Positions 4,574-53,479 are shown, counted from the first letter of the stretch. The stretch: DNA of 64,000 nucleotides from an uncultured Chloroflexia bacterium (GCA_963809595.1 CAWEKG010000002.1:800391-864390), one strand, 5' to 3'. The notes: generated by a model not told the origin, from the letters alone. Made by a program: numbers and translations.

Positions 4574-5422
4574 GTGAACCACGACGCGTTCCTGGCGGTC
4601 CAGAGCCTGCAGTTCCAGTTCGACCTGAACTTCTTCCTCGACTTCGTCTTCAACCCCAAGCCCGCCCTCATCGGCGGGATGGTGATCACCATCTACGTGG
4701 CCGTGATCGCCCAGATCATGGGGGTGATCCTGGGCATCCTCTCGGCCCTGGCCGGGATGTCGAAGAACCGCGCCCTTCGGGCGATCAGCGGGGTCTACGT
4801 CTGGTTCTTCCGGGGCACGCCGGTCCTCGTCCAGATCTTCCTGGTCTACTTCGGCACGCCGTACCTGTTCGGGGGGGTCGACCTCTTCCCCAACCATATC
4901 CTGATCGGACCCCTGGACCTCCACGGCGCGATCATGGCCGGCCTCGTCGCGCTGGGGATCAACGAGGGGGCGTACATGAGCGAGATCGTCCGGGCCGGCA
5001 TCCTGTCGGTCGACCCGGGCCAGACCGAGGCGGCGAAGTCGCTGGGGATGACCTACCGGCTGACGATGAGCCGGATCGTCCTCCCCCAGGCCCTGCGAGT
5101 GATCGTCCCGCCGCTCGGCAACGAGTTCAACAACATGATCAAGACGACCTCGCTCCTCAGCGTCATCGCGGTCGGTGACATGTTCCGGTTCGCCCAGGCC
5201 GTGAACTCGTCGACGTTCCACTCGTTCGAGGCGTATTTCGGTATCGCCCTCTATTACCTCCTCCTGACGACGATCTGGAGCTGGATCCAGAGCCGGATCG
5301 AGCGTCGTCTCGGCGAGAGCACCCGGGGCGAGGAGCAGACCTCGTTCTGGGGACGGCTGACGGGCTTCGGCCGGAAGGCGGTCCCTCCCGAGGACGCGAC
5401 CGGCGTGGGGTTCCACGAATGA
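4574..5422 (+). CDS. Amino-acid ABC transporter permease
   Basis: [20 protein letters not shown] and EAA loop ([11 protein letters not shown]). Confidence 0.93.
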
Positions 5423-36112: not shown

Positions 36113-36187
36113 TGGCGAGTGGCCAAGCGGTAAGGCGCCTGACTCTGGATCAGGAGATCGAAGGTTCGAATCCTTCCTCGCCAGCCA
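36113..36187 (+). tRNA. tRNA-Gln(CTG), copy 2 (integration target)
   Basis: Acceptor TGGCGAG/CTCGCCA, D-arm GCC-AAGCGGTAA-GGC, same CTG anticodon arm, encoded CCA. Confidence 0.95.
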
Positions 36188-36416
36188 ACACCACAACATC
36201 GTCGGGCCCGATCCGTTCAAACCACCAGATGATGTGGTTCTGAGCGTGACGGACGGCATCTCCAAGGAGGCTCGGAGATGCGAAGTGCGCCTGACTCTAC
36301 CCCCCACTTGTGCGCGGCGTCGGCGCCGCAAGGGCGATCACGAGCTCCAGCCACACAACGACCGGGATGAGCGGCGCGGGATCCCCGTGGCACAGAAGGG
36401 CGCCGGCGCTCCCGCG

Positions 36417-36938
36417 TCACCGGGTGTACGTGATTCCGTCCAGCACCGCGGACCGCCCCCCGCAGGGATCGGGCTCGATCGACGTGAACGTGAGGGAGCC
36501 CTCGTGCAGCGACCAACGATAGGTGCCGGTGCCGTTACAGCTGATGCTGCTGATGCTGCGGTAGAACGCGATCTCGTCCCCCTGGACCGCGATCCTGCCC
36601 GGCTGGCCCTCCGGACCTCTGGTGATGCCGTAGAGGTCCTCGTGGAGCCGGAGCTCCACCTGGTCGGTCTCCGACAGGGCCGTATGCCACACGCCGGTGA
36701 GCTCTGGGGGTGCGGGGCCGCCGGGCGGCGCGGGTGGACTTGGCGAAGGACTAGAGCGCGGGGATGGACTCGCAGGCAGGGGCGTCGCGGGTGAGGGCGA
36801 CGGAGTGACCGTCGCGGCACCTGACGAAGCCGTTGACGGAGGCGGCTGGGTGCCGGCGCAAGACGCCGTCATAAGGAGCAGGGCCACCGTAGCTACGGCC
36901 CGAACGAGGTGGCCAACTCGGAGCGGCGAAGCAGCCAA
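36417..36938 (-). CDS. Hypothetical lipoprotein (islet cargo)
   Basis: Lipobox TASC, S/P linker, beta domain with two Cys (LTGVWH...CNGTGTYRW...DPCGGR). Confidence 0.7.
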   Translation of the reverse strand: MAASPLRVGHLVRAVATVALLLMTASCAGTQPPPSTASSGAATVTPSPSPATPLPASPSPRSSPSPSPPAPPGGPAPPELTGVWHTALSETDQVELRLHEDLYGITRGPEGQPGRIAVQGDEIAFYRSISSISCNGTGTYRWSLHEGSLTFTSIEPDPCGGRSAVLDGITYTR

Positions 36939-37290
36939 TCGCGCACCTACCGTGACATCCTCGCCGAAGTATGCAAACCGTACGGCTGGATGCCGAAAGG
37001 GTCAAGCGGGCTGCCCGGTCAGCGCGGCGATGGTGCTCCGGACCGGGCGGTTGAGCTCATGGGCGAGGTCCGGACGTCCTCCGGCTCAATGCCCCCGCGA
37101 CCCTCCACGTCGTGATTGAAACGAGGCTCAGGAGTGAGATCTGGATGCGCGGCGACTTCGCTTGACTCATGGGCGAATCCGCTAGTTCGCATGACTCTTC
37201 TGGGAATGTTCGCCTGACACTCCCGGATCAACACGGCGCGAGGCGCCGAGCTGAGCTCAAAGATCGGCTGGAAAACCTGATTCGCGTCGT

Positions 37291-37340
37291 CTGACTCTGG
37301 ATCAGGAGATCGAAGGTTCGAATCCTTCCTCGCCAGCCAA
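37291..37340 (+). repeat. att-like copy of the tRNA-Gln 3' half
   Basis: Begins in the anticodon stem (CTGACTCTGG), runs through CCA, and lacks the 5' half. Confidence 0.9.
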
Positions 37341-38583: not shown

Positions 38584-38803
38584 GCCGTCCTCCTCGCTGG
38601 TCAAGCTGGTGACCCACCCTCGCCCGTTCCGTATCGGCGCGGCGATCCATATCGCCCAGCTCCACCTCGTCGCGAACTCCAGCCGGGTGCCACACGCCCT
38701 ATCAGGTGCCCCCGGGCACCATGACCACGGATTGGGGGCTGTCCGCCGAGTGCCCCGCCGTGCATGATGCCCACTCCGGGCCAGTACCGATGGGGGAGCT
38801 CGG

Positions 38804-39628
38804 GTGGAGAACGGGAGGACTATCGTCACAGTGCGAGCACGGCGCGTGCGCCTCGTTTGTGCCGCGGCCACGGGCGTCGCGCTGGCCCCCGTCGCGCTAT
38901 TCCTGCTCGGCGGCTGGGCCCATCTCGTTCGGGTCTACGGTGGGGTCGACTACGCCCTCTACATGGATGCCACCCGCCGGTTCCTGGCCGGCGGCGCATT
39001 CTACGAGCCGTGGCAGGTCGCCGGTCCGTACACGACCTCGTTCGGGGCGATCCTCTATCCGCCCAGCGCGCTGCCCCTGCTGGCGATCTTCGCCGTCCTG
39101 CCCGCCGTCCTGTGGTGGGCGATCCCGCTGGGTCTGACCGGCTACGCCATCCGCCGGCTGCGCCCCGCGCCGTGGGCCTGGCCGCTGATGGCGCTCTGCC
39201 TGGCCTGGCTGCCCGCCCTGCTCAGGATCGTGTCGGGCAACCCGGTCATCTGGGCGATGGCCGCCCTGGCCCTGGGCACGCTCCACGCCTGGCCATCCGC
39301 GTTCATCGTGCTCAAGCCGAGCCTCGGGCCGTTCGCGCTGTTCGGGATCCGCCGTCGCTCATGGTGGATCGCCCTCGGCGCGCTCGTCGTCCTGAGCATC
39401 CCCTTCACCACTCTCTGGCTCGACTGGGTCGCCGTCATCCGTCACTCCGGGCTCGGGTTCGCCTACTCGATCCACGAGGTCCCGCTGATGCTCATCCCGC
39501 TCATCGCCTGGGTCGCCCGGGACCGGGCGACGCTCCGAGCGACCGACCGGCCGATCGTCGAGCCGGCCGAGGTCGGCGCCGGGCTGCGGACGATCACGGT
39601 CCCGATGCCGCTGAACGGGCCCGCCTGA
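38804..39628 (+). CDS. GT87/DUF2029-like polytopic membrane glycosyltransferase
   Basis: DYALY, ILYPP, GN-containing TM segment, LKP motif. Confidence 0.7.
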   Translation: MENGRTIVTVRARRVRLVCAAATGVALAPVALFLLGGWAHLVRVYGGVDYALYMDATRRFLAGGAFYEPWQVAGPYTTSFGAILYPPSALPLLAIFAVLPAVLWWAIPLGLTGYAIRRLRPAPWAWPLMALCLAWLPALLRIVSGNPVIWAMAALALGTLHAWPSAFIVLKPSLGPFALFGIRRRSWWIALGALVVLSIPFTTLWLDWVAVIRHSGLGFAYSIHEVPLMLIPLIAWVARDRATLRATDRPIVEPAEVGAGLRTITVPMPLNGPA

Positions 39629-39751
39629 CCCTCGGTCGTGGACATCCTGACGGGGATGGCCCGTGCCCGGTGGCGATAGACCGCCGCGCTCGGTCGGGAT
39701 CGATCGTCCGCTCGAGGCAGCACGGCTGCTCCGGGCCGCCGGGGTCGGGGA

Positions 39752-41941
39752 CTACCCGGCCGGCGTGCGACGCCTCCTCAGGGGCGCCTCCCGGAGCTCC
39801 CAGTCCGGGCGGATACGGGGCAGGCCCTGGACCGTCCAGGCGATCCCATACCACACGTCCGCGCTGCCGGACCAGCGTCGGATCCTGATCGTATAGGTCT
39901 CTCCCGGGCGCGCGTCGAACTCCGCGATCTCATAGCTGTTGTCCCACGAGCCGCTGTACCCGACCAGCGAGCCGCGGCTGTCGTAGACCTTCAGGTCGAG
40001 ATCGAGCTGGAGGGTGTCCCAGCCGACCTGGATGAAGAGGATGTCCTGGATCGTCGCCAGGCTGTCCCACGCGAGCGCGACCTTGACCCTCGGCGTGAAG
40101 AACAGCGCCGGCACGGTCACCTGGTAGACGAACGTCGTCTCGCCGTTCGCCCCGATGTCGCTCGATCGGAGTGTGCCGACGTCCCAGCCGCGGCGGGTCC
40201 CGGCCGAGCCGCGAGACCGACGGCTCTGCGCGATCCGCACGCCTTCCAGGGCGTCGACGGCGCCGGAGCCGTCGGAGGCGTCGATGCCCGCGCTGCGGTC
40301 GGCCCACCAGGTCGCCCCGCCGACATTCCGACTGGCACCCGCGAGCAGGATGGCCCGGCAGCCCTCGGGCCAGGACTGCAGGGTGGTGCTGGCTTCCTGG
40401 AGCAGAGCCGTGCAACCGGCCGCGGCGGGCGCCGCCATGCTGGTGCCGCTCAGGGTCAGCTTGACCGCCGTGACCGCCATCCCGTTCGCGGCGATCTCCG
40501 GCGACTCGCGGTCGCCGTGCGCGGACGCGGCGTTGCGAAAGACAGAGTCGCTGGCCATCGCCGTGGCGGTGTCGTTGTGACTGCCGACCGCGAGGCTGTT
40601 GAAGCCCTTGTGGTTGACGTACTCCGTGCTCGTGCCGTTGCCGGCCGCCTGGAGGATGGTGGGGTACGGCCAGTGCAGGACCAGCCAGTCCTTGTACATG
40701 TCGTCGAACGACAGGCCGGAGTCCGTCTGCTCGGCCTCGCGATGGAAGCTCTGACTGATGACCGTGCAGCCGCGGGTGCGGGCCGCCCAGCTGATCGCCG
40801 CGAGCGCCATGGTGTTGGCCGAATGCAGGTTGCACCCGGACGCGTGCCCGTTGGGCAGGCCGGCCTCGGTGTTCCTGATGATCCCGTGGGTGTGGCGCGA
40901 GTGCTGCGTCGTCGCCGGGCTGGTCGTGAAGGAGGCCGCGATCGCGAGATCGGCGGTGCTGTCGGGGCCGTCCTCGTAGACGGCCACGTTGACCCCGCTA
41001 CCGGTCAGACCCAGGCTCGACTGGACCGTGTCCGACTGGGCGATCGCCATGGAGTCGGAGAGGTCGAGTCGCCCCTCGGTCTCGTGCAGGAAGAGCGCGG
41101 CGATCTCCGGGTACTCCTCGAGCCGGCGGATGCTCGCGACGGGCAGGCCGGCATACACCACGGGTGCGTGCAGATCGGGCTCGACGTCCTCCGCGCCGTG
41201 CTCGCGCAGGATCCTGGCGACCCGCTCGGCCGCCTTCGCCGCACTGCCAGCTCGCTCGATCTCCGCCGGCGGCGGCTTGGTCGTGGCGCCCCGCTGACGC
41301 TTGGCGTGAAGCTTGGCCGGGGGGAGCTGGAGCCAGACCGCCACCGGCAGACGCTCGTCGTCGCGGCGCTCCTCGACCGCCCGGTGCAGCGTCGGATGCA
41401 TCTTGCCGAACGTGCCCTGGCGATCCCGGACGATCCGGGCGAAGACCTCATCCGGGTCGATCCTGGCGCCGTCCTGGTCGAAGGCGAGCTCGACCGGCTT
41501 GCCCGTCCGCCGGTCGACCGCCTTCATGATCTCGATGAACGGCCCGTCGGGCCGGGCCGGTTCCGGCAACCTGACCGTGCCCAGACGCTCGACGCGGAGA
41601 CGCACCAGGGTCTCGATCCGCAGCGACGACCCGACCTTCGCCACCGAGTCGCTGACGAAGAACGGCACCCCCAGGCGATCCCCGAGACGCCTGCCCGTGG
41701 TCGAGACCAGCTCATCGACGGTCAGGATGTGTGGCCCCGGTGGCAGGTCGTCGTCCGGTATGGCGGTGACCGTGCGCCCGTCGTCCGAGAGCGCGACGGT
41801 GAGGTGGTGCTGGCCGAGGCCAAGCGCTCCTCGAGCGGTCTCGGGATCGAGCGGGGCGTGTGCCCGGACCTCGAGCCGAGGGGATCCGAGCACGATCTCG
41901 TACGGCTCGACGCTGACCTCGACGGGTCGCCGGTCGGGCAT
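39752..41941 (-). CDS. S8 subtilase with N-terminal Ig-like and pro regions and C-terminal jelly-roll domain; Glu in place of the catalytic Asp
   Basis: VAVYEDG, HSRHTHGII, AAGNG, SGTSMAAP, C-terminal DLDLKVYD; SD GAGGAGG; no signal peptide seen. Confidence 0.88.
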   Translation of the reverse strand: MPDRRPVEVSVEPYEIVLGSPRLEVRAHAPLDPETARGALGLGQHHLTVALSDDGRTVTAIPDDDLPPGPHILTVDELVSTTGRRLGDRLGVPFFVSDSVAKVGSSLRIETLVRLRVERLGTVRLPEPARPDGPFIEIMKAVDRRTGKPVELAFDQDGARIDPDEVFARIVRDRQGTFGKMHPTLHRAVEERRDDERLPVAVWLQLPPAKLHAKRQRGATTKPPPAEIERAGSAAKAAERVARILREHGAEDVEPDLHAPVVYAGLPVASIRRLEEYPEIAALFLHETEGRLDLSDSMAIAQSDTVQSSLGLTGSGVNVAVYEDGPDSTADLAIAASFTTSPATTQHSRHTHGIIRNTEAGLPNGHASGCNLHSANTMALAAISWAARTRGCTVISQSFHREAEQTDSGLSFDDMYKDWLVLHWPYPTILQAAGNGTSTEYVNHKGFNSLAVGSHNDTATAMASDSVFRNAASAHGDRESPEIAANGMAVTAVKLTLSGTSMAAPAAAGCTALLQEASTTLQSWPEGCRAILLAGASRNVGGATWWADRSAGIDASDGSGAVDALEGVRIAQSRRSRGSAGTRRGWDVGTLRSSDIGANGETTFVYQVTVPALFFTPRVKVALAWDSLATIQDILFIQVGWDTLQLDLDLKVYDSRGSLVGYSGSWDNSYEIAEFDARPGETYTIRIRRWSGSADVWYGIAWTVQGLPRIRPDWELREAPLRRRRTPAG

Positions 41942-41954
41942 GACTGCCTCCTCG

Positions 41955-42599
41955 CTACGGGAAGATCTCGCCGACGAACCAGGTACTGGCGGAGACCCAC
42001 TGGTTGCCGGCACCGCCCCAGCCCTGGTCAACGTAGAACCAGCGGTCGTAGACCGTGGTGTCCCAGCACCAGATGAAGCAGGTCCGGACGGTGCGCTCCT
42101 GGTAGGCATAGCCGAACGCCATCGGGTAGTGGCTGAGCCAGCCGGTGCCGATGACCGCCGGGGTCGCCCGGTACCGGATGCTGTCGCGAGCTCGGTCGCG
42201 GATCCAGTCCTGGCACCAGCCGATGCTGTTCCAGCCGGCTCGCAGGCTGGTGTACGACCGACCGGTCAGGTAGTGCCAGGCGTCGGCCATGCGCCATGGC
42301 CAGGTCGCGCCCGAGCCGGCGATGCAGAACGTTCCCACGTAGCCGTGGATCTCGCGGATGACGTTCTCCACCCCGGCGTCCTGGTTGACGGGCGCCAGTG
42401 CGTCGGCGCCGTAGCCGCCGTTCTGGCGATAGAGGCCGTTGCGGGGTGCCCAATAGCCGTTACCGAGACCGGCCTGGCGGTCGGCCCAGCCGAAGAGCAT
42501 CGCCCACGCGACGGGTCCGCAGCCCACGGCGCAGCCGCCAAAGGGGAACTGGTAGTAGTTCGGGACCGGGGGCGGAGCCCACCAGTACGAGTAGGCCAC
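41955..42599 (-). CDS. Papain-fold cysteine protease catalytic domain (C10 streptopain-like)
   Basis: Q17, GC27GPVAW, SH157YPMAFGY, FYVDQGWGG; SD AAGGAGG 9 nt before GTG. Confidence 0.75.
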   Translation of the reverse strand: MAYSYWWAPPPVPNYYQFPFGGCAVGCGPVAWAMLFGWADRQAGLGNGYWAPRNGLYRQNGGYGADALAPVNQDAGVENVIREIHGYVGTFCIAGSGATWPWRMADAWHYLTGRSYTSLRAGWNSIGWCQDWIRDRARDSIRYRATPAVIGTGWLSHYPMAFGYAYQERTVRTCFIWCWDTTVYDRWFYVDQGWGGAGNQWVSASTWFVGEIFP

Positions 42600-42601
42600 G
42601 G

Positions 42602-43699
42602 CTACCGCCCTCCTTCGGTCGAGGTCGTTCGCTGGTTCGACGGTGACCCGGACGCGACGAGGAAGAAGCGCAGTCGCTCGTCCGTGCCGTCGGGGTAGCG
42701 GATGTCCACGAAGAGGTCGATCTCGCCGGCGATCGCGGCACCCCCTTTCACCGTCAGGACGAGCGCCGGGATCCCCGGTGTCTCATCGAGCCGGGCGACG
42801 ACATGCCGGGCGCCCTCGCCACTGAGCTCCACCGCGGCTTCACGCTGGAGCAGGGCCACGCGATGGGTCTCCCCTTCATGGATGCCCTCACCGAACTCCT
42901 CGATGAGCGCCTCCACCTCCCAGGCGCGGGCCGCCTGCCGACGCAGCTCGTCGAGGAACGGCCCGAACGAGTCGGCGTAACGCTCGCGGAACGACCCCCA
43001 GTCGTCCGCCTCGATGGGCTTGAGGTCCGGGACCCGGTCCTCGGTCCGGGTGACCTGGTGTTCCACGCCCTCGGCCTGATCGTCGGACTTCACCTCCCCG
43101 GCCGGCGTTGCTTCGAGGGTCGACCGATCGCTCGCGGAGCGCCGCAGGTCGTGGGGCAGCCCGGTGACGAGGCCGGGCATCTGGCCGACCCGTCCCACCA
43201 GCGTCCCGTCCTTCGCCTCGGCGACGTAGGCCAGGGCGTCGAGGCGGTAGATCCGCTCGATCTCACCGCCCTTCTCCCCCGCCGCCCGGAGCTGTCCGCT
43301 GATCGGAGGCAGGTCCAGGCTCCAGTGCGGAATGGGGAAGTCATGCGGCCCGGTCGAGACGACGATGAACCCGCGATCCGACGAGGGGGGCGGTTCGGGA
43401 CGGCCCCTGAGACCCAGCTCGGACCGCTTCGGGCGGGCACCGGTCGTCCTGCGTTCGGTGGCCAGCAGCGCGGAGAGCTCGGCTGCCGAGGTGACCAGCC
43501 GGGTCGGCGAGGAACCCAGGTCCACGGCGAACTCGTAGTAGGCCACCTCCTCGAGATCGGGGCGATGGATCGGCCAGGCCTCGTCGGCCAGCTTGGCCAT
43601 GCCAGCGTTCGGCGCCATCGGCGTCCCGCGGATGGACTCGAGGTGCTGGGCGGCTTTGCGCCGGATCGGCACCGGGACCCTGGACAGCTCGATCGACAT
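42602..43699 (-). CDS. Spi/I69-like pro-domain or inhibitor protein with C-terminal beta-rich extension
   Basis: YYEFAV...GFIVVSTGPHDFPIPHWS resembles the C10 propeptide pattern; SD AGGAG; no signal peptide seen. Confidence 0.55.
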   Translation of the reverse strand: MSIELSRVPVPIRRKAAQHLESIRGTPMAPNAGMAKLADEAWPIHRPDLEEVAYYEFAVDLGSSPTRLVTSAAELSALLATERRTTGARPKRSELGLRGRPEPPPSSDRGFIVVSTGPHDFPIPHWSLDLPPISGQLRAAGEKGGEIERIYRLDALAYVAEAKDGTLVGRVGQMPGLVTGLPHDLRRSASDRSTLEATPAGEVKSDDQAEGVEHQVTRTEDRVPDLKPIEADDWGSFRERYADSFGPFLDELRRQAARAWEVEALIEEFGEGIHEGETHRVALLQREAAVELSGEGARHVVARLDETPGIPALVLTVKGGAAIAGEIDLFVDIRYPDGTDERLRFFLVASGSPSNQRTTSTEGGR

Positions 43700-43951
43700 G
43701 ACGCCCCGCTCCTGGCTGATCCGAGTCGAGCGGCGACCTGTCTCGCCCTCGAGGGTGACAGCCACGAGGGGGTTGTCGAATCGCGAAGGGACGCAGAACG
43801 GGACTCGCCTGGATCAACTTCGCCGGCCCCGTCGGCGCCCCGGTCCGCGTGTTCGGCGCGGCAGTCGTCGACCCGAGTCTGCGCCCGAAGTGGGAGCGGT
43901 CAAGTCCTGATCGTGCCGGTACTTTGGGGCCCGCGCCGGCCGTACCGGGAC

Positions 43952-43980
43952 TTGACAACTTACTTAGTGACTGCTAAGTT
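43952..43980 (+). promoter_or_regulatory. tetR promoter with overlapping palindromic operator
   Basis: TTGACA, 17 nt, TAAGTT; ACTTAG-N6-CTAAGT at 43962-43979; ATG 7 nt downstream. Confidence 0.8.
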
Positions 43981-43987
43981 ACACGGC

Positions 43988-44548
43988 ATGAACACGAGAC
44001 TCACCGCCGACGAGCGCCGCGACGAGGTGATCGCGGCCGCGACCATCGAGTTCGCGGCCGGCGGCTTCGCCGGCACCTCCACGAACGCGATCGCCCGCCG
44101 GGCGGGGGTATCGCAGCCCTACCTCTTCCAGCTCTTCCGGACCAAGCAGGAGATCTTCCTGGCCGCCGTCCGGGGGTGCTTCGACCGTACCGGCCGGGTC
44201 TTCGAGGAGGCGGGCCGGGCCGCCCAGACCGCCGGTCTCGACAGCGAGGGGATCCTCATGCGGATGGGCGAAGCCTACGTGAAGATGCTCCTGGCCGACC
44301 GCAACAGCCTCCGGCTCCAGCTCCACGCCTACGCGGCCTGCTCGGACCCGGATGTCCGGGCCGTCGTCCGGGATGAGTTCTTCGCCCTGTGGCACCGGGT
44401 CGCCCGGCTGTCCGGAGCTGACGTGTACGGGCTCCACGCCTGGTTCGCCCAGGGGATGCTGATCAACGTCATCGCCAGCGTCGGCGACGCGCGGACCGTC
44501 GAGGAGTTCAACGCGACGCTGCTCGGAGGTGTCGCCGCCCGGAAATGA
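43988..44548 (+). CDS. TetR/AcrR-family regulator
   Basis: HTH: FAAGGFAGTSTNAIARRAGVSQPYLFQLFRTK. Confidence 0.93.
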   Translation: MNTRLTADERRDEVIAAATIEFAAGGFAGTSTNAIARRAGVSQPYLFQLFRTKQEIFLAAVRGCFDRTGRVFEEAGRAAQTAGLDSEGILMRMGEAYVKMLLADRNSLRLQLHAYAACSDPDVRAVVRDEFFALWHRVARLSGADVYGLHAWFAQGMLINVIASVGDARTVEEFNATLLGGVAARK

Positions 44549-44573
44549 CCGACCGCTTTTCTTTGCCCGCTGG

Positions 44574-44591
44574 ACTTAGCGACTACTCAAT
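44574..44591 (+). promoter_or_regulatory. Second TetR operator-like site before the MFS gene
   Basis: ACTTAGCGACTACTCAAT matches 14 of 18 positions of ACTTAGTGACTGCTAAGT. Confidence 0.55.
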
Positions 44592-44636
44592 CATCCAACA
44601 GGAACCCACCACCGACCGGAACCCAAGGAGCCTCCG

Positions 44637-46067
44637 ATGACCCGCCGATCCTCAGCCACCTGGACCTTCATGATCACCGCGCTGGCCCTGTTCATGGTCA
44701 GCCTCGACAACCTGGTCGTGACGATGGCGCTGCCCGTGATCCGCCTGGATCTCGGTGCGTCGCTGGCCGACCTCGAGTGGACCGTCAACGCCTACACCCT
44801 GACCTACGCGGCCCTCCTCCTGTTCGGCGCCGCGCTCGGCGACCGGTTCGGGAGACGGCGGGTCTTCGTCATCGGCCTGGCGATCTTCACCCTGGGCTCG
44901 GCCGCGGCAGCCCTCGCGCCGACCAGCACCGCGCTCATCCTGGCTCGTGCGACGCAGGGCCTCGGCGCCGCCTTCGTAACCCCGCTGAGCCTGACCATCC
45001 TGTCCGCCGCCGTCTCGCCGGCCCGACGGCCGCTGGCGCTCGGCGCCTGGGGCGGCATCTCGGGCCTGGCCATCGCCATCGGTCCGGTCGTCGGCGGTGC
45101 CATCACCCAGGGCGCCGACTGGCACTGGATCTTCTGGCTCAACGTCCCGATCGGGATCGTCGGGGTGATCCTGGCCGCCCTCCGGCTCGACGAAAGCCGC
45201 GGGCCGGACCGCGCCCTCGACGTGCCCGGGGTGGCCCTCGCCGGGGCCGGGCTGATCGGCATCGTCTGGGGCGTCACCCACGGCAACGGCCTGGGCTGGA
45301 CCGATCCCCAGGTCCTCGCCGCGATCGCCGTCGGGACGGCGCTCATCGCCGCCTTTATCGCCTGGGAGGCCCGGACGGACCAGCCGATCCTGCCCCTCCA
45401 GGTCCTCGGCCGACGCGGTTCGGTCGTCTCGAACGGCGTCTCGTTCCTGATGTCCTTCGGGATGTTCGGCTCGATCTTCCTGCTCTCGCAGTTCTTCCAG
45501 GTGGTCCAGGGCCTCAACCCGTTCGAGGCGGGCCTCCGGGTCCTGCCATGGACAGCGATGCCCATCTTCGTCGCCCCGATCGCCGGGGTCGCCTCGGCCA
45601 GGATCGGCGCTCGCCCGATCATCGCCGCGGGGCTCGCCCTGATGGCCGTCGGCCTGGCCTGGATCGCCGCGGTCAGCTCGACCACCGTCGCGTACTCCAG
45701 CCTCGTGCCGGCGTTCATCCTCAGCGGCGTGGGCATGGGCCTCTTCTTCGCCCCGATCGCCAACGTCGTCCTGTCGGCCGTGCCGCGGGAGGACGAGGGC
45801 AAGGCGTCGGGGGCCAACAACACCATCCGCGAGCTGGGCGGGGTCTTCGGGGTGGCGGTCCTGGCCGCGGTCTTCTCGGCCAACGGCTCGTACCAGTCCC
45901 CGGCCCAGTACGTCGCGGGTCTCACCCCCGCGGTCGCCGTCGGCGCCGCCGTGCTGGCCCTGGGCGCCGTGCTTGCCCTTGCCCTCCCCCGCTACGTGAG
46001 GGGCATGCGGCTCGCCGAGCCGGAGACGAGCGTCGCCTTCGGGGACGCGGAAGGGGCAGCGGCCTGA
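44637..46067 (+). CDS. DHA2 (14-TM) MFS efflux transporter
   Basis: LDNLVV, W..NAYTL, GDRFGRR, GP.VGG, IF..NVPIG. Confidence 0.92.
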   Translation: MTRRSSATWTFMITALALFMVSLDNLVVTMALPVIRLDLGASLADLEWTVNAYTLTYAALLLFGAALGDRFGRRRVFVIGLAIFTLGSAAAALAPTSTALILARATQGLGAAFVTPLSLTILSAAVSPARRPLALGAWGGISGLAIAIGPVVGGAITQGADWHWIFWLNVPIGIVGVILAALRLDESRGPDRALDVPGVALAGAGLIGIVWGVTHGNGLGWTDPQVLAAIAVGTALIAAFIAWEARTDQPILPLQVLGRRGSVVSNGVSFLMSFGMFGSIFLLSQFFQVVQGLNPFEAGLRVLPWTAMPIFVAPIAGVASARIGARPIIAAGLALMAVGLAWIAAVSSTTVAYSSLVPAFILSGVGMGLFFAPIANVVLSAVPREDEGKASGANNTIRELGGVFGVAVLAAVFSANGSYQSPAQYVAGLTPAVAVGAAVLALGAVLALALPRYVRGMRLAEPETSVAFGDAEGAAA

Positions 46068-46227
46068 CCGCGGGCAACGGAACCCCGCCCACCGCGGGAC
46101 CGCGAGTGTCTTCGTCGGCAGGCCGGCTCGAGCCGGCCTGCCGACTCCCACGTCCACGACGGTGCAACAATCCCGGTCGATCGGCGTCCTCCTGACGGGA
46201 ACGCAGACAGCCGTGAGGTAGCGGGCG

Positions 46228-46809
46228 ATGACGCTGACCGAGCAACCGATCGACCCGGGTGGCGACCGCCCCTCGGCCCCGTCGGCGGACGCGCCGGCCC
46301 AGGCACCCGAGCCCGGGCCGCCGGTCGGGACGTCCCCCACCCGGATGATCGCGATCGCGCTGGCGGCCGTCGGCGTACTCGTCGTGCTGTCCGTCGTCGT
46401 GATCCTCGCCTTCGGCGCCGGGGGCGTCCGCGAGTACCCGACGGGCACGCCCGAGGCGACCGTCCAGGCCTACGTCCGAGCGACGGACTCGGGCGACCTC
46501 GCCGGCGCCTACGGCCTGCTCAGCGCCCGGCTCAAGGCGACCCTGACGGAGTCCGGCTACGTCGATCGGGTGACGATGTACGGCTACACGGGCGGCGACG
46601 GTCCGAGTCGGGTCGCCCGGATCGACCGGACCGACATCCGCGACGATCGGGCGACCGTGATCCTCACCCTCGAGCAGTACTCCGGCGGTGGCGGGCTCAC
46701 CCCGAACCGCAACACGTTCCACCCGACGCTCCTGCTCGTCCGCGAAGGCGGGACCTGGAAGCTCGATCAGCTCTACGTCGGGCCCGAGCTCATGCCCGAA
46801 GCGCCGTAG
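46228..46809 (+). CDS. Hypothetical single-TM protein with NTF2-like ectodomain
   Basis: One TM helix, then TPEATVQAYV...AYGLLS...EGGTWKL. Confidence 0.65.
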   Translation: MTLTEQPIDPGGDRPSAPSADAPAQAPEPGPPVGTSPTRMIAIALAAVGVLVVLSVVVILAFGAGGVREYPTGTPEATVQAYVRATDSGDLAGAYGLLSARLKATLTESGYVDRVTMYGYTGGDGPSRVARIDRTDIRDDRATVILTLEQYSGGGGLTPNRNTFHPTLLLVREGGTWKLDQLYVGPELMPEAP

Positions 46810-46824
46810 CAGGGAGACATCCCG

Positions 46825-48601
46825 ATGCAGACCGCACGGCGGACCTACCTCTACCTGCTCTCGGCGATCGGCCTCACCGTCGCGGCGGTCGGGCTGTGGA
46901 ACCTCCTGACCCTGGCCTTCGAGCGCATCTCGGGTCAGCTCTCGGGCTCGGTCATCGGCTCGATCAGCCAGGCCGACACGCGATCGCAGCTGAGCCTCGC
47001 CCTCGCCCTCGTCGCGGTGGCCGGACCGCTGTGGGCCATCCACTGGTGGTTCGTCGGGTCGAGGCGTCCGCTCCCCGGTCAGCGGTGAGGCCGAGAGGAC
47101 GGCCCCGATCCGCGCCTTCTACCTCGCCCTGGTGGAGCTGGTCGCCCTGGGGCTCGTCCTGGTCAACGGCTCGGCCGTCGTCACGAGCGCGATCCGCGGC
47201 GCGATCGGCCGACCGGCGGAGTTCGGCGGGGCGCCCGAAGGATCGCTCGCGGCCGTCCTCGTCGCCGGCGGGATCTGGGCGTTCCATGCGCTCACCCGGC
47301 GCGACGACGAGCGAGTCGGTCCGATGGAGGGCCCGGCGGCCTGGTGGCCCCGGCTCGCCTGGTACGCCCTCGTGGCCGGGGCGCTCGTCATGCTCTGCTC
47401 GAGTGCAACCGAGCTCATCCGGACCCTGCTCGACGTTGCGGTCGGCCGCTCGTCGATCGTCGGCGCGACCGATCCCTGGCTCGCGCCCGTCGCCGGCAGC
47501 TTCGCCGGCATCCTCGTCGGCGGCTGCGCCTGGCTCGGGCTGTGGCTCGGGCTCGACCGACGGCTCCGGTCGCCGGGCTGGATCGGGCCGAGCGAGCGCG
47601 CCTCGGCGGTCCGCAAGGGCTTCCTGGCCGGCGGGATCGTCGTCGGTGCGGCGACGACCCTGCTCGCGGTGAGCGGCGGCCTGGCCGTCGCCCTGGCCTG
47701 GCTGCTCGGAGCCGCCGAGACGACCGACCCGTCACGAGCCTTCCAGGACGCGGTAGGCCCGCCGATCGCCATCCTGCCCTTCACCATCGTCTGGTGGTGG
47801 AGCCGACGGCGCCTGCTGGCCGAGGGTCCCTGGGCCTGGCCGCGGGACGGGGTCGTGGCCGCCCGTCGGTTGAGCAGCTACGCGTCGGCGGCCGTCGGGC
47901 TGGCCTTCGCCGCGGTCGGCGCGGGCTGGCTGGTCGGGTTCGTCGTCGACGTCGCCCTCGGTGGCGAGCGAACGATCCTCGCCGGCTCGGACGTCTGGCA
48001 TCGGGAGGTCGCCACCTACCTGGCGTACCTGCTGGTCGGGACGCCGCTCTGGCTGTGGAGCTGGATCGTGGCCACCCGCCGCTGGGCGACGATGCCCCAG
48101 CTCGAGGCCGCGGCGACCCAGCGACGGGTCTACCTCTACCTGGTCCTCGCCACGACGCTCATCGCGTCGATCTCCGGGCTCGCCGTGATCATCTACCGTC
48201 TGTTCGGCGTGCTCCTCGGCGCGACCGCGCCGTCGAACGTCGTCTCCGAGCTCAGCCAGCCGGTCGGCGTCGTGCTGGTCGGCGCTCTCGTCGTCGCCTA
48301 TCACGGGCTCGCCCTGCGGACGGACCTGGCCCTCCGGGAGCCCGCCGCCGCGGGCCCGGCCCCGGCCATGACCTGGGCGACCGACGCGACGACCGCGACC
48401 GCGACCGCGGTGACCTCTACCGCCGCAGGTACGGCCACGCTCCGACCGACCGGCCCGCCCGTCGAGCTCTCGGTCGTCGTCGTCGGACCGCCGGACGCGG
48501 ATCCCGACCAGGTCCTGGCGACCCTTCGGGACGCCCTGCCGGCGGGCTACGCGATCCGACCGTCCAGCCCCGCACCCGACGCATCGCCCGGTCCGGCCTG
48601 A
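46825..48601 (+). CDS. DUF5671-like multi-pass membrane protein (frameshift near 47070)
   Basis: Repeated RR.YLY modules (ARRTYLYL, IRAFYL, QRRVYLYL) and W..HW motif; the two ORFs join with one indel. Confidence 0.7.
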
Positions 48602-48785
48602 CCCCGTCGGTCCCGTCGGCCTCGACAACAGGGCCATTCGGCCCGGCGCAGGTGAGCCGCCTTGGCACGGCGAGGGGGCGCGCAGCGGACCGATAATCGA
48701 CTCCCGGTCCTGCCCCCAGGGGCAGGGCGGCCCGGACCTGCCACGAATACGCCACCGACCCGATCCGCGAAGGGAGTCCCCGCCC

Positions 48786-52432
<3,647 letters not shown>

Positions 52433-52436
<4 letters not shown>

Positions 52437-53479
52437 CCGTCGACCTGAGCACCCGCTATCTCGGTCTCGAGCTCCGCTCGCCGATCGTCGCGTCGGCCGC
52501 CCCGCACAACGGGGAGCCGGCCACCGCCAAACGTCTCGAGAACGCGGGGGTCGGCGCCATCGTCCTCCCCTCGTTGTTCGAGGAGGAGATCCTGGCTGAG
52601 GAATGGGAGCTCGACCGGGCCCTGAACCAGGGCACCGAGCAGTTCGCCGAGGCCCTCGACTACTTCCCGGCGGTCGAGACCTTCCTGGGCGCGGCCGATC
52701 GCTACGTCACCTCGCTCGAACGGGTCAAGAAGGCCGTTTCGGTGCCGGTCGTCGCGAGCCTGAACGCGAGCACGGCCGGCGGCTGGGTCCGCTACGCCCA
52801 GCGGCTCGAGGAGGCCGGCGCCGACGCCCTCGAGCTGAACCTCTATCACTTGGCCGCCGATCCGCGTCGGACCGCCGACGAGATCGAGGCGGCCGACCTC
52901 GAGCTGATCGCCGCAGCGCGTCTCGCGGTGACGATCCCGCTGGCGGTCAAGCTGAGCCCGTTCTACTCGGCGCTCTCGCACTTCGCCGCCGCGGCCACCG
53001 CGGCCGGCGCCGACGGTCTCGTCCTGTTCAACCGCTTCTACCAACCCGACCTCGACCTCGAATCGCTCGAGGTCGTGCCGCGGCTGGAGCTGAGCCAGGC
53101 CTGGGAGCTTCGGCTGCCGGTCCGCTGGATCGGGATCCTCCGGCCCCAGCTCGGGCCCGACGTCTCGCTGGCGGCGACCTCCGGCGCGCAGACCGGGGGC
53201 GACGTGGTCAAGGGGCTCATCGTGGGCGCCGACGTGGTGATGATGACCTCGGCCCTGCTCCGCCACGGCCCCGAGCACGTCGCGACGGTCGAGGCCGAGC
53301 TGCGGTCCTGGATGGCCGAGCACGAATACGTCTCGGTCGAGCAGCTCCGGGGGAGCGCCAGCCAGGCCACGGTCGAGAACCCGTCGGCCTTCGAGCGGGC
53401 GAACTATCTCCAGACGCTCCGCTCGTGGGTCACGCCGCGCGAGCTGACCTCGACCTCGCCCACCCGTTCGAGGGGCTGA
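52433..53479 (+). CDS. Dihydroorotate-dehydrogenase-like FMN protein
   Basis: DLSTRYLGLEL.SP, VKLSP, VLFNRF; the SCPN loop is replaced by LYHL. GTGA overlap with nifJ. Confidence 0.85.

Follow-up and report, generated by a model that had tools for sequence, protein, structure and literature searches.

Three closely spaced genes, two of them encoding predicted proteases and one a protein resembling a pro-domain, raise the question of whether they act together as one proteolytic system or, if not, which of them belong together. The genes occupy positions 39752–43699 of a 64,000-nucleotide stretch of DNA from an uncultured Chloroflexia bacterium (GCA_963809595.1 CAWEKG010000002.1:800391-864390), the whole of which is called the window below, and an initial annotation had read them as a three-gene cassette forming a two-protease cascade. 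Our analysis points to a smaller unit: genes A and B probably make up a zymogen-like cysteine protease in two pieces, in which A acts in trans on B, and the subtilase gene C is an independent neighbour. The three genes are:

43699..42602, minus strand: gene A, 365 residues, ATG start, own Shine-Dalgarno sequence (SD); pro-region-like partner without signal peptide
42599..41955, minus strand: gene B, 214 residues, GTG start; predicted streptopain-like peptidase domain without its own pro-region or signal
41941..39752, minus strand: gene C, 729 residues, ATG start; S8 subtilase, possibly co-transcribed with A and B

The open reading frames (ORFs) and a direct reading of the junctions bore out the arrangement first described, namely three co-directional genes with gaps of 2 nt and 13 nt and an SD for each. 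The TAG stop of A is followed after 2 nt by the GTG of B, with GGAGGG located 5′ of this GTG, and the TAG stop of B is separated by 13 nt (cgaggaggcagtc) from the ATG of C. The sequence 5′ of the start of A contains AGGAGCGGGG, and purine-rich SDs are found at the starts of all three genes. The absence of signal peptides also held: no hydrophobic signal segment was found at the N-termini of A, B or C, the alternative longer start of A (GTG at 43765) adds only 22 residues, which are non-hydrophobic, and no alternative start was found upstream of the GTG of B. Both proteases had been described as Trp-rich, which applies to B (18 W, 8.4%, together with 13.1% Gly, many Tyr residues and 6 Cys) and not to C (2.1% Trp).

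A and B are conserved as a pair

A scan for B using one genome per species retrieved 65 loci from Chloroflexota, Actinomycetota, Pseudomonadota, Bacteroidota, Verrucomicrobiota, Acidobacteriota, Myxococcota and Planctomycetota, and tblastn showed that in 64 of these 65 species loci an A homologue either directly precedes B or is joined to it in one protein. Where the two are separate genes, 30 of 34 split loci have the B start at –4 to +5 nt from the A stop, and the SD of B often lies inside the last codons of A; A and B thus read as translationally coupled genes. B is the more conserved partner, with a mean column identity of 73% vs 42% for A. The split form of A always begins at the domain boundary, and most loci have no in-frame upstream start at all. 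Among 39 split loci, an upstream start of A with a hydrophobic extension was found in none except L035, where a 117-residue extension reaches 10 of 12 on our hydrophobicity measure; elsewhere there is either no start or a non-hydrophobic extension. We also considered that split loci might be pseudogene fragments of a fused gene, which we rejected given their own starts and SD sites and their strong conservation.

The borders of the pair are sharp. In the nearest relatives, B is 88–90% identical, and the DNA homology with the nearest A-B loci stops exactly at the stop codon of B; for locus L005 it is limited to positions 41932–43952 of the window, that is, to the two genes and some 250 nt of leader. 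When the flanking ORFs were clustered all against all, no conserved third gene emerged beyond lineage-specific synteny, and the seven annotated contexts are mutually unrelated, including uvrB, smpB/RNase R, chemotaxis genes, insertion sequence (IS) elements and a PemK toxin. Transposases, integrases or toxin-antitoxin genes lie near A-B in several loci. A link to genes for defence, type VII secretion or contractile injection, to which the initial annotation had looked, did not materialise: no such genes, nor any other secretion genes linked to A-B, were seen in the neighbourhoods examined, and PADLOC gave no match for A or B. Among relatives of the window genome, B turned up in one of the 18 congeners and in none of the other 42, and searches of 72,556 plasmids and 50,697 phage records gave no match to it. 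The pair is a self-contained accessory module of patchy distribution, which it probably owes to horizontal transfer.

The subtilase is an independent neighbour

Gene C had been called a subtilase, and rightly so: it matches Pfam Peptidase_S8 (PF00082) with E = 1e-10 and 41.9 bits, compared to a cut-off of 21.8, over residues 376–537 only. It has 789 homologues at E ≤ 0.001, the 120 of them that are listed being 54–82% identical, in a family of about 725 residues whose aligned members begin in the majority with ‘MPxRxS...’ and have no signal peptide. The Ser in GTSMAAP (S501) and the His residues H350/H352 are invariant in this family; at the usual Asp motif (‘VAVYEDGPD’), E323 and D327 are invariant and position 324 varies (D/N/S). 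PADLOC matched C to its generic ‘subtilase’ model only (E = 2.3e-6).

A single proteolytic system of all three genes, in which two proteases act in a cascade and a chaperone or inhibitor acts in trans, is suggested by their tight spacing and common direction in the window genome and by the lack of signal peptides on all three; in addition, in G104, the congener whose flanking genes are closest to those of the window, the flanks match up to 39631 and from 43951 and nothing between them matches. The wider record, however, separates C from the pair. With tblastn, no C homologue was found within the A-B flanks at any of 69 loci, so that of the proposed triplet the A-B part stood (64 of 65 species loci) and the C part did not. 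C is likewise absent from all 22 other A-B-carrying genomes and from all 38 relatives searched, in a search whose query recovered the window copy, and C-family genes stand alone in three unrelated contexts elsewhere (L070–L072). The C family thus has a distribution as patchy as that of A-B. Together with the end of homology at the B stop codon, these observations make a three-gene system highly improbable. Since C is not linked to A-B elsewhere, the trio is best read as a local juxtaposition in which A-B is the real unit, and, as judged by these comparisons, A-B and C appear to have been acquired independently.

Gene B is a predicted streptopain-like cysteine peptidase

Profile searches of B were uninformative: there was no Pfam match at E ≤ 1, and NCBIfam, PADLOC and a PDB profile search likewise returned no real match beyond chance. 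More than 215 close homologues of about 215 residues were found, all of them lacking both a functional name and a Pfam domain, and in a Pfam scan of 48 family members, which gave nothing significant overall, Peptidase_C10 (PF01640) was touched by a single member (E = 0.29). An AlphaFold2 (AF2) model of B built from a 50-sequence alignment scored 90.4 for pLDDT (predicted local distance difference test) and 0.88 for pTM (predicted template modelling score). A Foldseek search of this model against the PDB returned streptopain (6uqd_A) as the top match, with E = 4.3e-4, a probability of 1.0 and a TMq of 0.50, followed by IdeC and IdeS, which are related enzymes that degrade IgG; UfSP1 and a viral papain-like protease (PLpro) were among the weak matches.

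The candidate catalytic residues are strongly conserved. Q17, C27, H157 and N/D191, the last being D191 in the window, each occur in ≥96% of 271 homologues, and the set that also includes W194 is conserved in 254–264 of the 271 sequences. Besides the catalytic Cys27, Cys23 and Cys92 are conserved. The codons of the two central residues are:

42519..42521, minus strand: Cys27 codon (predicted nucleophile), motif GCGPVAWAM; Cys at this position in 259 of 262 aligned homologues
42129..42131, minus strand: His157 codon (predicted general base), motif WLSHYPMAFGY; His at this position in 264 of 266 homologues, with the codon read directly

An hhalign comparison of 93 A-B proteins with canonical I69-C10 zymogens, represented by eight sequences from Bacteroidota genomes, was colinear over the catalytic domain (E = 1.3e-3) and paired ‘GCGaTAWAM’ with ‘TGCVATAMAQ’, ‘HYPLAyGY’ with ‘GGHAFVxDGY’ and ‘FYVNQGWGG’ with ‘FHINWGWGG’. 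Owing to the fold match, the colinear motifs and the conserved Gln-Cys-His-Asn/Asp set, we assign B as a predicted, remote streptopain-like clan CA cysteine peptidase with a papain fold. By sequence criteria, B falls outside Pfam C10. The original assignment to the C10 proteases was thus supported at the level of the fold, by AF2 and Foldseek, and not by sequence alone, where Pfam, NCBIfam and the PDB profile search were silent. B also differs from the C10 hallmark of an exported pre-pro-enzyme, as in the window it begins at its catalytic domain, without a signal.

Gene A resembles the pro-region of B

Gene A had no match in Pfam, NCBIfam or PADLOC, and a PDB-sequence profile search gave chance matches only. 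Its AF2 model (pLDDT 86.5) consists of an N-terminal alpha/beta part, a 36-residue helix (residues 234–269) and a C-terminal beta-sandwich. Two regions can be placed on the DNA:

43319..43543, minus strand: I69-core-like beta-hairpin region, residues 53–127, ‘AYYEF...GFIVVSTGPHDFPIPHWS’; suggestive only
42650..42892, minus strand: immunoglobulin (Ig)-like (Rib-like) beta-sandwich, residues ~270–350, from Foldseek against the PDB

The most conserved residues of A (A53, Y54, E56, G110, F111, H119, D120, P122, H125 and S127) fall into the first of these regions, in which ‘AYYEF...GFIVVSTGPHDFPIPHWS’ resembles the I69 core ‘YvF...GFvvVSADDr.PvLGYS’. An hhalign comparison of the A N-terminus with eight canonical I69 domains gave a modest alignment of 36 columns (E = 3.8e-4, probability 36%), and a less diverse profile gave 16 columns (E = 0.017). 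Pfam Inhibitor_I69 (PF13734) was matched by none of the 48 family members and is absent from six A-B-carrying genomes. The Ig-like reading of the C-terminal sandwich comes from Foldseek, whose output does not name the residues matched: the best PDB match of the A model was 6s5w, ‘Rib Long’ (E = 9.7e-4), and the matches listed from BFVD were all Ig-like. Pfam RibLong was weakly matched in three family members. An ‘RRR’ sequence in A was considered as a Tat signal and rejected, as no hydrophobic segment follows it; the motif ‘VPxxxRRRAAxxLE’ at the N-terminus of split A proteins also occurs internally in secreted fusions, which marks it as structural rather than as a Tat motif.

What supports a pro-region-like behaviour of A is its position in relatives, in most of which it is fused N-terminally to B; the initial description of A as pro-domain-like thus found support. 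Several polar residues of A are also invariant (R46, D48, E56, H119, D120, H125, D154 and E161), and these might be more than a binding surface needs. This bears on another possibility, namely that B has the papain fold but is not a protease kept latent by A, being instead an amidase, a transferase or an isopeptidase, or that A is a substrate or cargo processed by B. The similarity of B to C10 is at the level of the fold, which houses many chemistries, and the weak matches to UfSP1 and viral PLpro would fit such a function. However, the best structural and profile matches are to streptopain and IdeS-type peptidases, the Gln, Cys, His and Asn motifs are colinear with theirs, and the single-chain relatives are laid out as classical zymogens, with a signal peptide first, then the pro-region and last the catalytic domain, so we consider a non-protease role of B, or a substrate role of A, improbable.

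Most single-chain relatives carry signal peptides and the split form is derived

A profile search with the B domain through 1.84 billion cluster representatives returned 513 clusters at E ≤ 0.001. Of the 150 best-scoring clusters, 130 have A directly before B in one polypeptide, with B nearly always C-terminal, and the majority of these single-chain proteins begin with a hydrophobic leader, indicating that the bulk of sequence diversity in this family is of a secreted, zymogen-like kind. The shortest single-chain relatives, of ~520–640 residues, comprise A and B behind a signal peptide, and in longer ones VWA, LamG, Big_5, CHB_HEX_C, FG-GAP or CarboxypepD_reg-type domains are added. Among the 65 loci of the species scan, those of Anaerolineae, Thermoflexales and Planctomycetota are of the secreted single-chain kind by their full ORFs, with the signal peptide at the start. 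A reading of the Anaerolineae loci as ~560-residue fused proteins was rejected, because the full ORFs are longer and place signal peptides first; the alignments used for AF2 included N-terminally short Anaerolineae rows, and the modelled window proteins are unaffected by this.

The split loci cluster tightly on a B-domain tree (199 sequences), where 2 changes of state suffice, vs a mean of 36.7 in shuffles. The tree, which was built with FastTree only, is compatible with what may be a single origin of the split form. The secreted zymogen-like protein is the main form of the family, and the form in the window belongs to a derived, split and signal-less clade.

Two features of the single-chain proteins were recorded along the way. 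A short hydrophobic motif, ‘(Y/F/W)LP(L/M/V)(I/V)’, lies between the Ig-like domain and a low-complexity linker that leads to the catalytic domain in L049, L052, L054, L058, L061, P0241, P0242 and P0244, and a remnant of it is seen in some split A proteins, e.g. ‘ALPPLF’ in L001; this motif may be a processing or recognition site. Four loci from Planctomycetota and Brocadiaceae metagenome-assembled genomes (MAGs) (L053, L056, L059 and L065), which have neighbouring genes in common, carry a shortened A of ~170–200 residues without the Ig-like domain.

The secreted majority of the family, and the Trp-rich composition and non-catalytic C23 and C92 that B retains from secreted forms, would be expected if A-B acted outside the cell, reaching it by non-classical export or by release through lysis, vesicles or an unlinked secretion system. 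Against this stand the 39 signal-less split loci, which are spread over monoderm and diderm phyla, so that no single alternative secretion system could serve all of them. Moreover, no linked secretion genes were seen in the neighbourhoods examined, and the members of the split clade, on which purifying selection is strong, have the missing signal peptide in common as a derived trait. We consequently judge an extracellular site of action to be unlikely for the split form.

A two-piece zymogen as the proposed mechanism

In the mechanism we favour, an ancestral secreted polypeptide would have been cut at the linker between A and B, giving two translationally coupled genes, with the signal peptide being lost. 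Equal amounts of A and B would then be produced and would associate non-covalently; in this complex, A would aid the folding of B and keep it latent, much as the SpeB pro-domain or Spi does, until removal or degradation of A yields active B. The most likely site of action would be the cytoplasm, which is the most economical assumption for a clade that spans monoderm and diderm phyla and carries no export signals.

Several observations weigh against parts of this model. The hhalign probabilities against the eight-sequence canonical alignment are low, at 18% for the catalytic domain and 36% for A against I69, the TM-score between B and streptopain is only 0.50, and no above-threshold Pfam match links B to C10 or A to I69, either in the window proteins or in the 48 family members scanned. 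Among the 50 matches listed from fold searches of A (PDB and BFVD), there were Ig-like domains only and no pro-domain, and a role of A as pro-domain, chaperone or inhibitor accordingly depends on the domain order and a short motif. The conserved Cys23 and Cys92 and the Trp richness of B, which are features of its secreted relatives, leave room for a possible non-classical export. Finally, C follows B after 13 nt with its own SD, and a local co-expression or a lineage-specific link with A-B is possible.

The patchy and probably horizontal spread, the two-gene layout and the frequent IS neighbours make a role in addiction or defence conceivable for this two-piece protease. Specifically, A-B could be a toxin-antitoxin-like or abortive-infection module in which the loss of A, through stress or phage-induced turnover, frees B as an intracellular protease toxin; A, a former pro-region, would then be the trans-acting antitoxin or sensor of a cytoplasmic streptopain-like B, in a mobile module found in at least seven phyla. 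This would be a functional refinement of the two-piece zymogen rather than a contradiction of it. It is in line with the lack of an export signal on A or B, the coupled genes with the putative neutraliser A upstream, the very patchy distribution with 56–90% identity across phyla, the movement of A-B on its own with homology ending at the module borders, the transposases, integrases or toxin-antitoxin genes near several loci, and the far stronger conservation of B (73%) than of A (42%). However, PADLOC did not recognise A or B, the plasmid and phage collections searched (72,556 and 50,697 records) held no match to B, and the neighbouring genes are for the most part housekeeping or miscellaneous ones, which show neither a defence-island pattern nor a conserved third gene; in addition, with 365 residues, A is large for an antitoxin. 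Both the toxin-antitoxin-like module and the antitoxin or sensor function of A thus strike us as unlikely, though conceivable.

Surroundings of the locus

The gene trio is flanked upstream by a divergent TetR/major facilitator superfamily (MFS) pair, and downstream by a LuxR-type response regulator and a membrane protein. Three further features lie in this part of the window:

43700..43952, minus strand: leader or promoter region 5′ of A, ~250 nt, delimited by DNA alignment
36113..36187, plus strand: tRNA-Gln(CTG), identified by ARAGORN
37288–37340: copy of the tRNA-Gln 3′ half, 53 nt, 52 of 53 identical, repeat family D1

The leader, which contains CAGGACTTGACCG, is kept only in the two nearest relatives (L005:4650-4900 and L006:4660-4900) and is not conserved in remoter split loci. 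An Rfam scan of the locus, including the leader, gave no match. It could be a promoter/operator, or its conservation could reflect mere recent common descent.

The trio had been placed just past a tRNA-Gln attachment scar. The tRNA and the 53-nt copy were both confirmed, and the 1.1-kb islet between positions 36188 and 37340 is bounded by the tRNA-Gln 3′ half and this copy; the trio starts 2.4 kb past the 53-nt repeat and is outside the islet. Within the islet, an ORF on the minus strand (36417–36938, 173 residues) is lipoprotein-like and had no Pfam match. A near-identical tRNA-Gln (4634–4708) is found ~200 nt upstream of A in L008, a second Chloroflexia MAG, whose B is 80% identical; this places the A-B module near tRNA-Gln in at least two genomes.

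This part of the genome is variable. Compared with G104, the window shows DNA homology at 38698–39631 and 43951–46057, with a different block order. The intervening region 39632–43950, which holds the three genes and the leader, has no counterpart in the 18.8 kb of G104 that the comparison covered, and searches of the whole G104 genome gave neither B nor C. The blocks 38698–39631, 43951–46057 and 48577–53466 are all present there (L089, G104:C2), in the opposite block order and with the same internal orientation, and window positions 46058–48576 are missing (L089). This block difference is either a rearrangement hot spot or an artefact of MAG assembly. A simple insertion relative to G104 was rejected, since the flanking blocks are rearranged, and for the same reason the comparison supports only the absence of 39632–43950.

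Comparison with known systems

The pair A-B is uncharacterised and belongs to an unannotated family of at least 513 clusters at 50% identity, which has no Pfam or NCBIfam model and no functional name in any source. Its members are predicted streptopain-like cysteine peptidases whose pro-region is large, conserved and made of three parts, and they are widespread in soil and water bacteria; a conserved, patchy, signal-less clade arising from such a secreted family raises the prospect of an intracellular protease function, be it addiction, defence or regulated self-proteolysis. For the locus itself, the annotation is corrected in that the subtilase C is not part of the A-B system.

Pre-pro-enzymes of family C10, such as streptopain (SpeB), consist of a signal peptide, an Inhibitor_I69 pro-domain and a Peptidase_C10 domain. 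Likeness to this layout is seen at three levels: streptopain is the best structural match of B, with Gln, Cys, His and ‘N-W/Q-G-W-G-G’ in the same order; the single-chain relatives of A-B have the same succession of signal peptide, pro-region and catalytic domain; and A contains an I69-like ‘GF-hydrophobic-VS...P-x-x-aromatic-S’ hairpin. However, the pro-region A is three times larger (~320 residues, with a long helix and an Ig-like domain), B is smaller (214 residues), has ‘GCGP’ as its nucleophile motif and carries a beta-hairpin inserted ahead of NQGWGG, and pro-region and enzyme are separate genes in the window, neither with a signal peptide. This split, signal-less form of a streptopain-like zymogen family is unusual.

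Some secreted polymorphic toxins also end in a papain-like peptidase domain (Tox-PL1 and others; PMC3482391), and the fused A-B relatives similarly carry a papain-fold domain at the extreme C-terminus of large secreted proteins. In A-B, however, it is the A-B unit that is constant and the N-terminal parts that vary, the reverse of polymorphic toxins, and no immunity gene, RHS or other trafficking domain or linked secretion system was seen with A-B. With type II toxin-antitoxin systems, A-B shares a layout of two coupled, horizontally mobile genes with the putative neutraliser upstream; it differs in that A and B match no known toxin-antitoxin or defence family and are much larger proteins.

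Closer parallels exist among clan CA cysteine proteases that are paired with dedicated inhibitors in two-gene operons, some of them on mobile elements, as in the staphopain-staphostatin and Bfp-Bfi pairs. In Bacteroides fragilis, the C10 protease Bfp is co-transcribed with staphostatin-like inhibitors (PMC2873492). These inhibitors are small lipocalin-like proteins (Bfi, 116–138 residues) rather than pro-domains, and A shows no similarity to staphostatin or Bfi; furthermore, the proteases of these pairs are exported.

The nearest parallel in organisation is provided by SpeB and Spi. According to Kagawa et al. (2005), as cited in PMC2873492, Spi is an analogue of the pro-peptide that adjoins speB, is co-transcribed with it and inhibits SpeB. 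As in A-B, a pro-domain-like protein is encoded by a separate, co-expressed gene beside a C10-type protease, with a proposed role in protecting the cytoplasm of the producer. SpeB, however, retains its covalent pro-domain and signal peptide, Spi being an extra small copy, whereas A is the only pro-region, separate and upstream, of a B without signal. A-B may thus represent a natural split zymogen, which could serve as a model for pro-domains that act in trans as chaperones and inhibitors.

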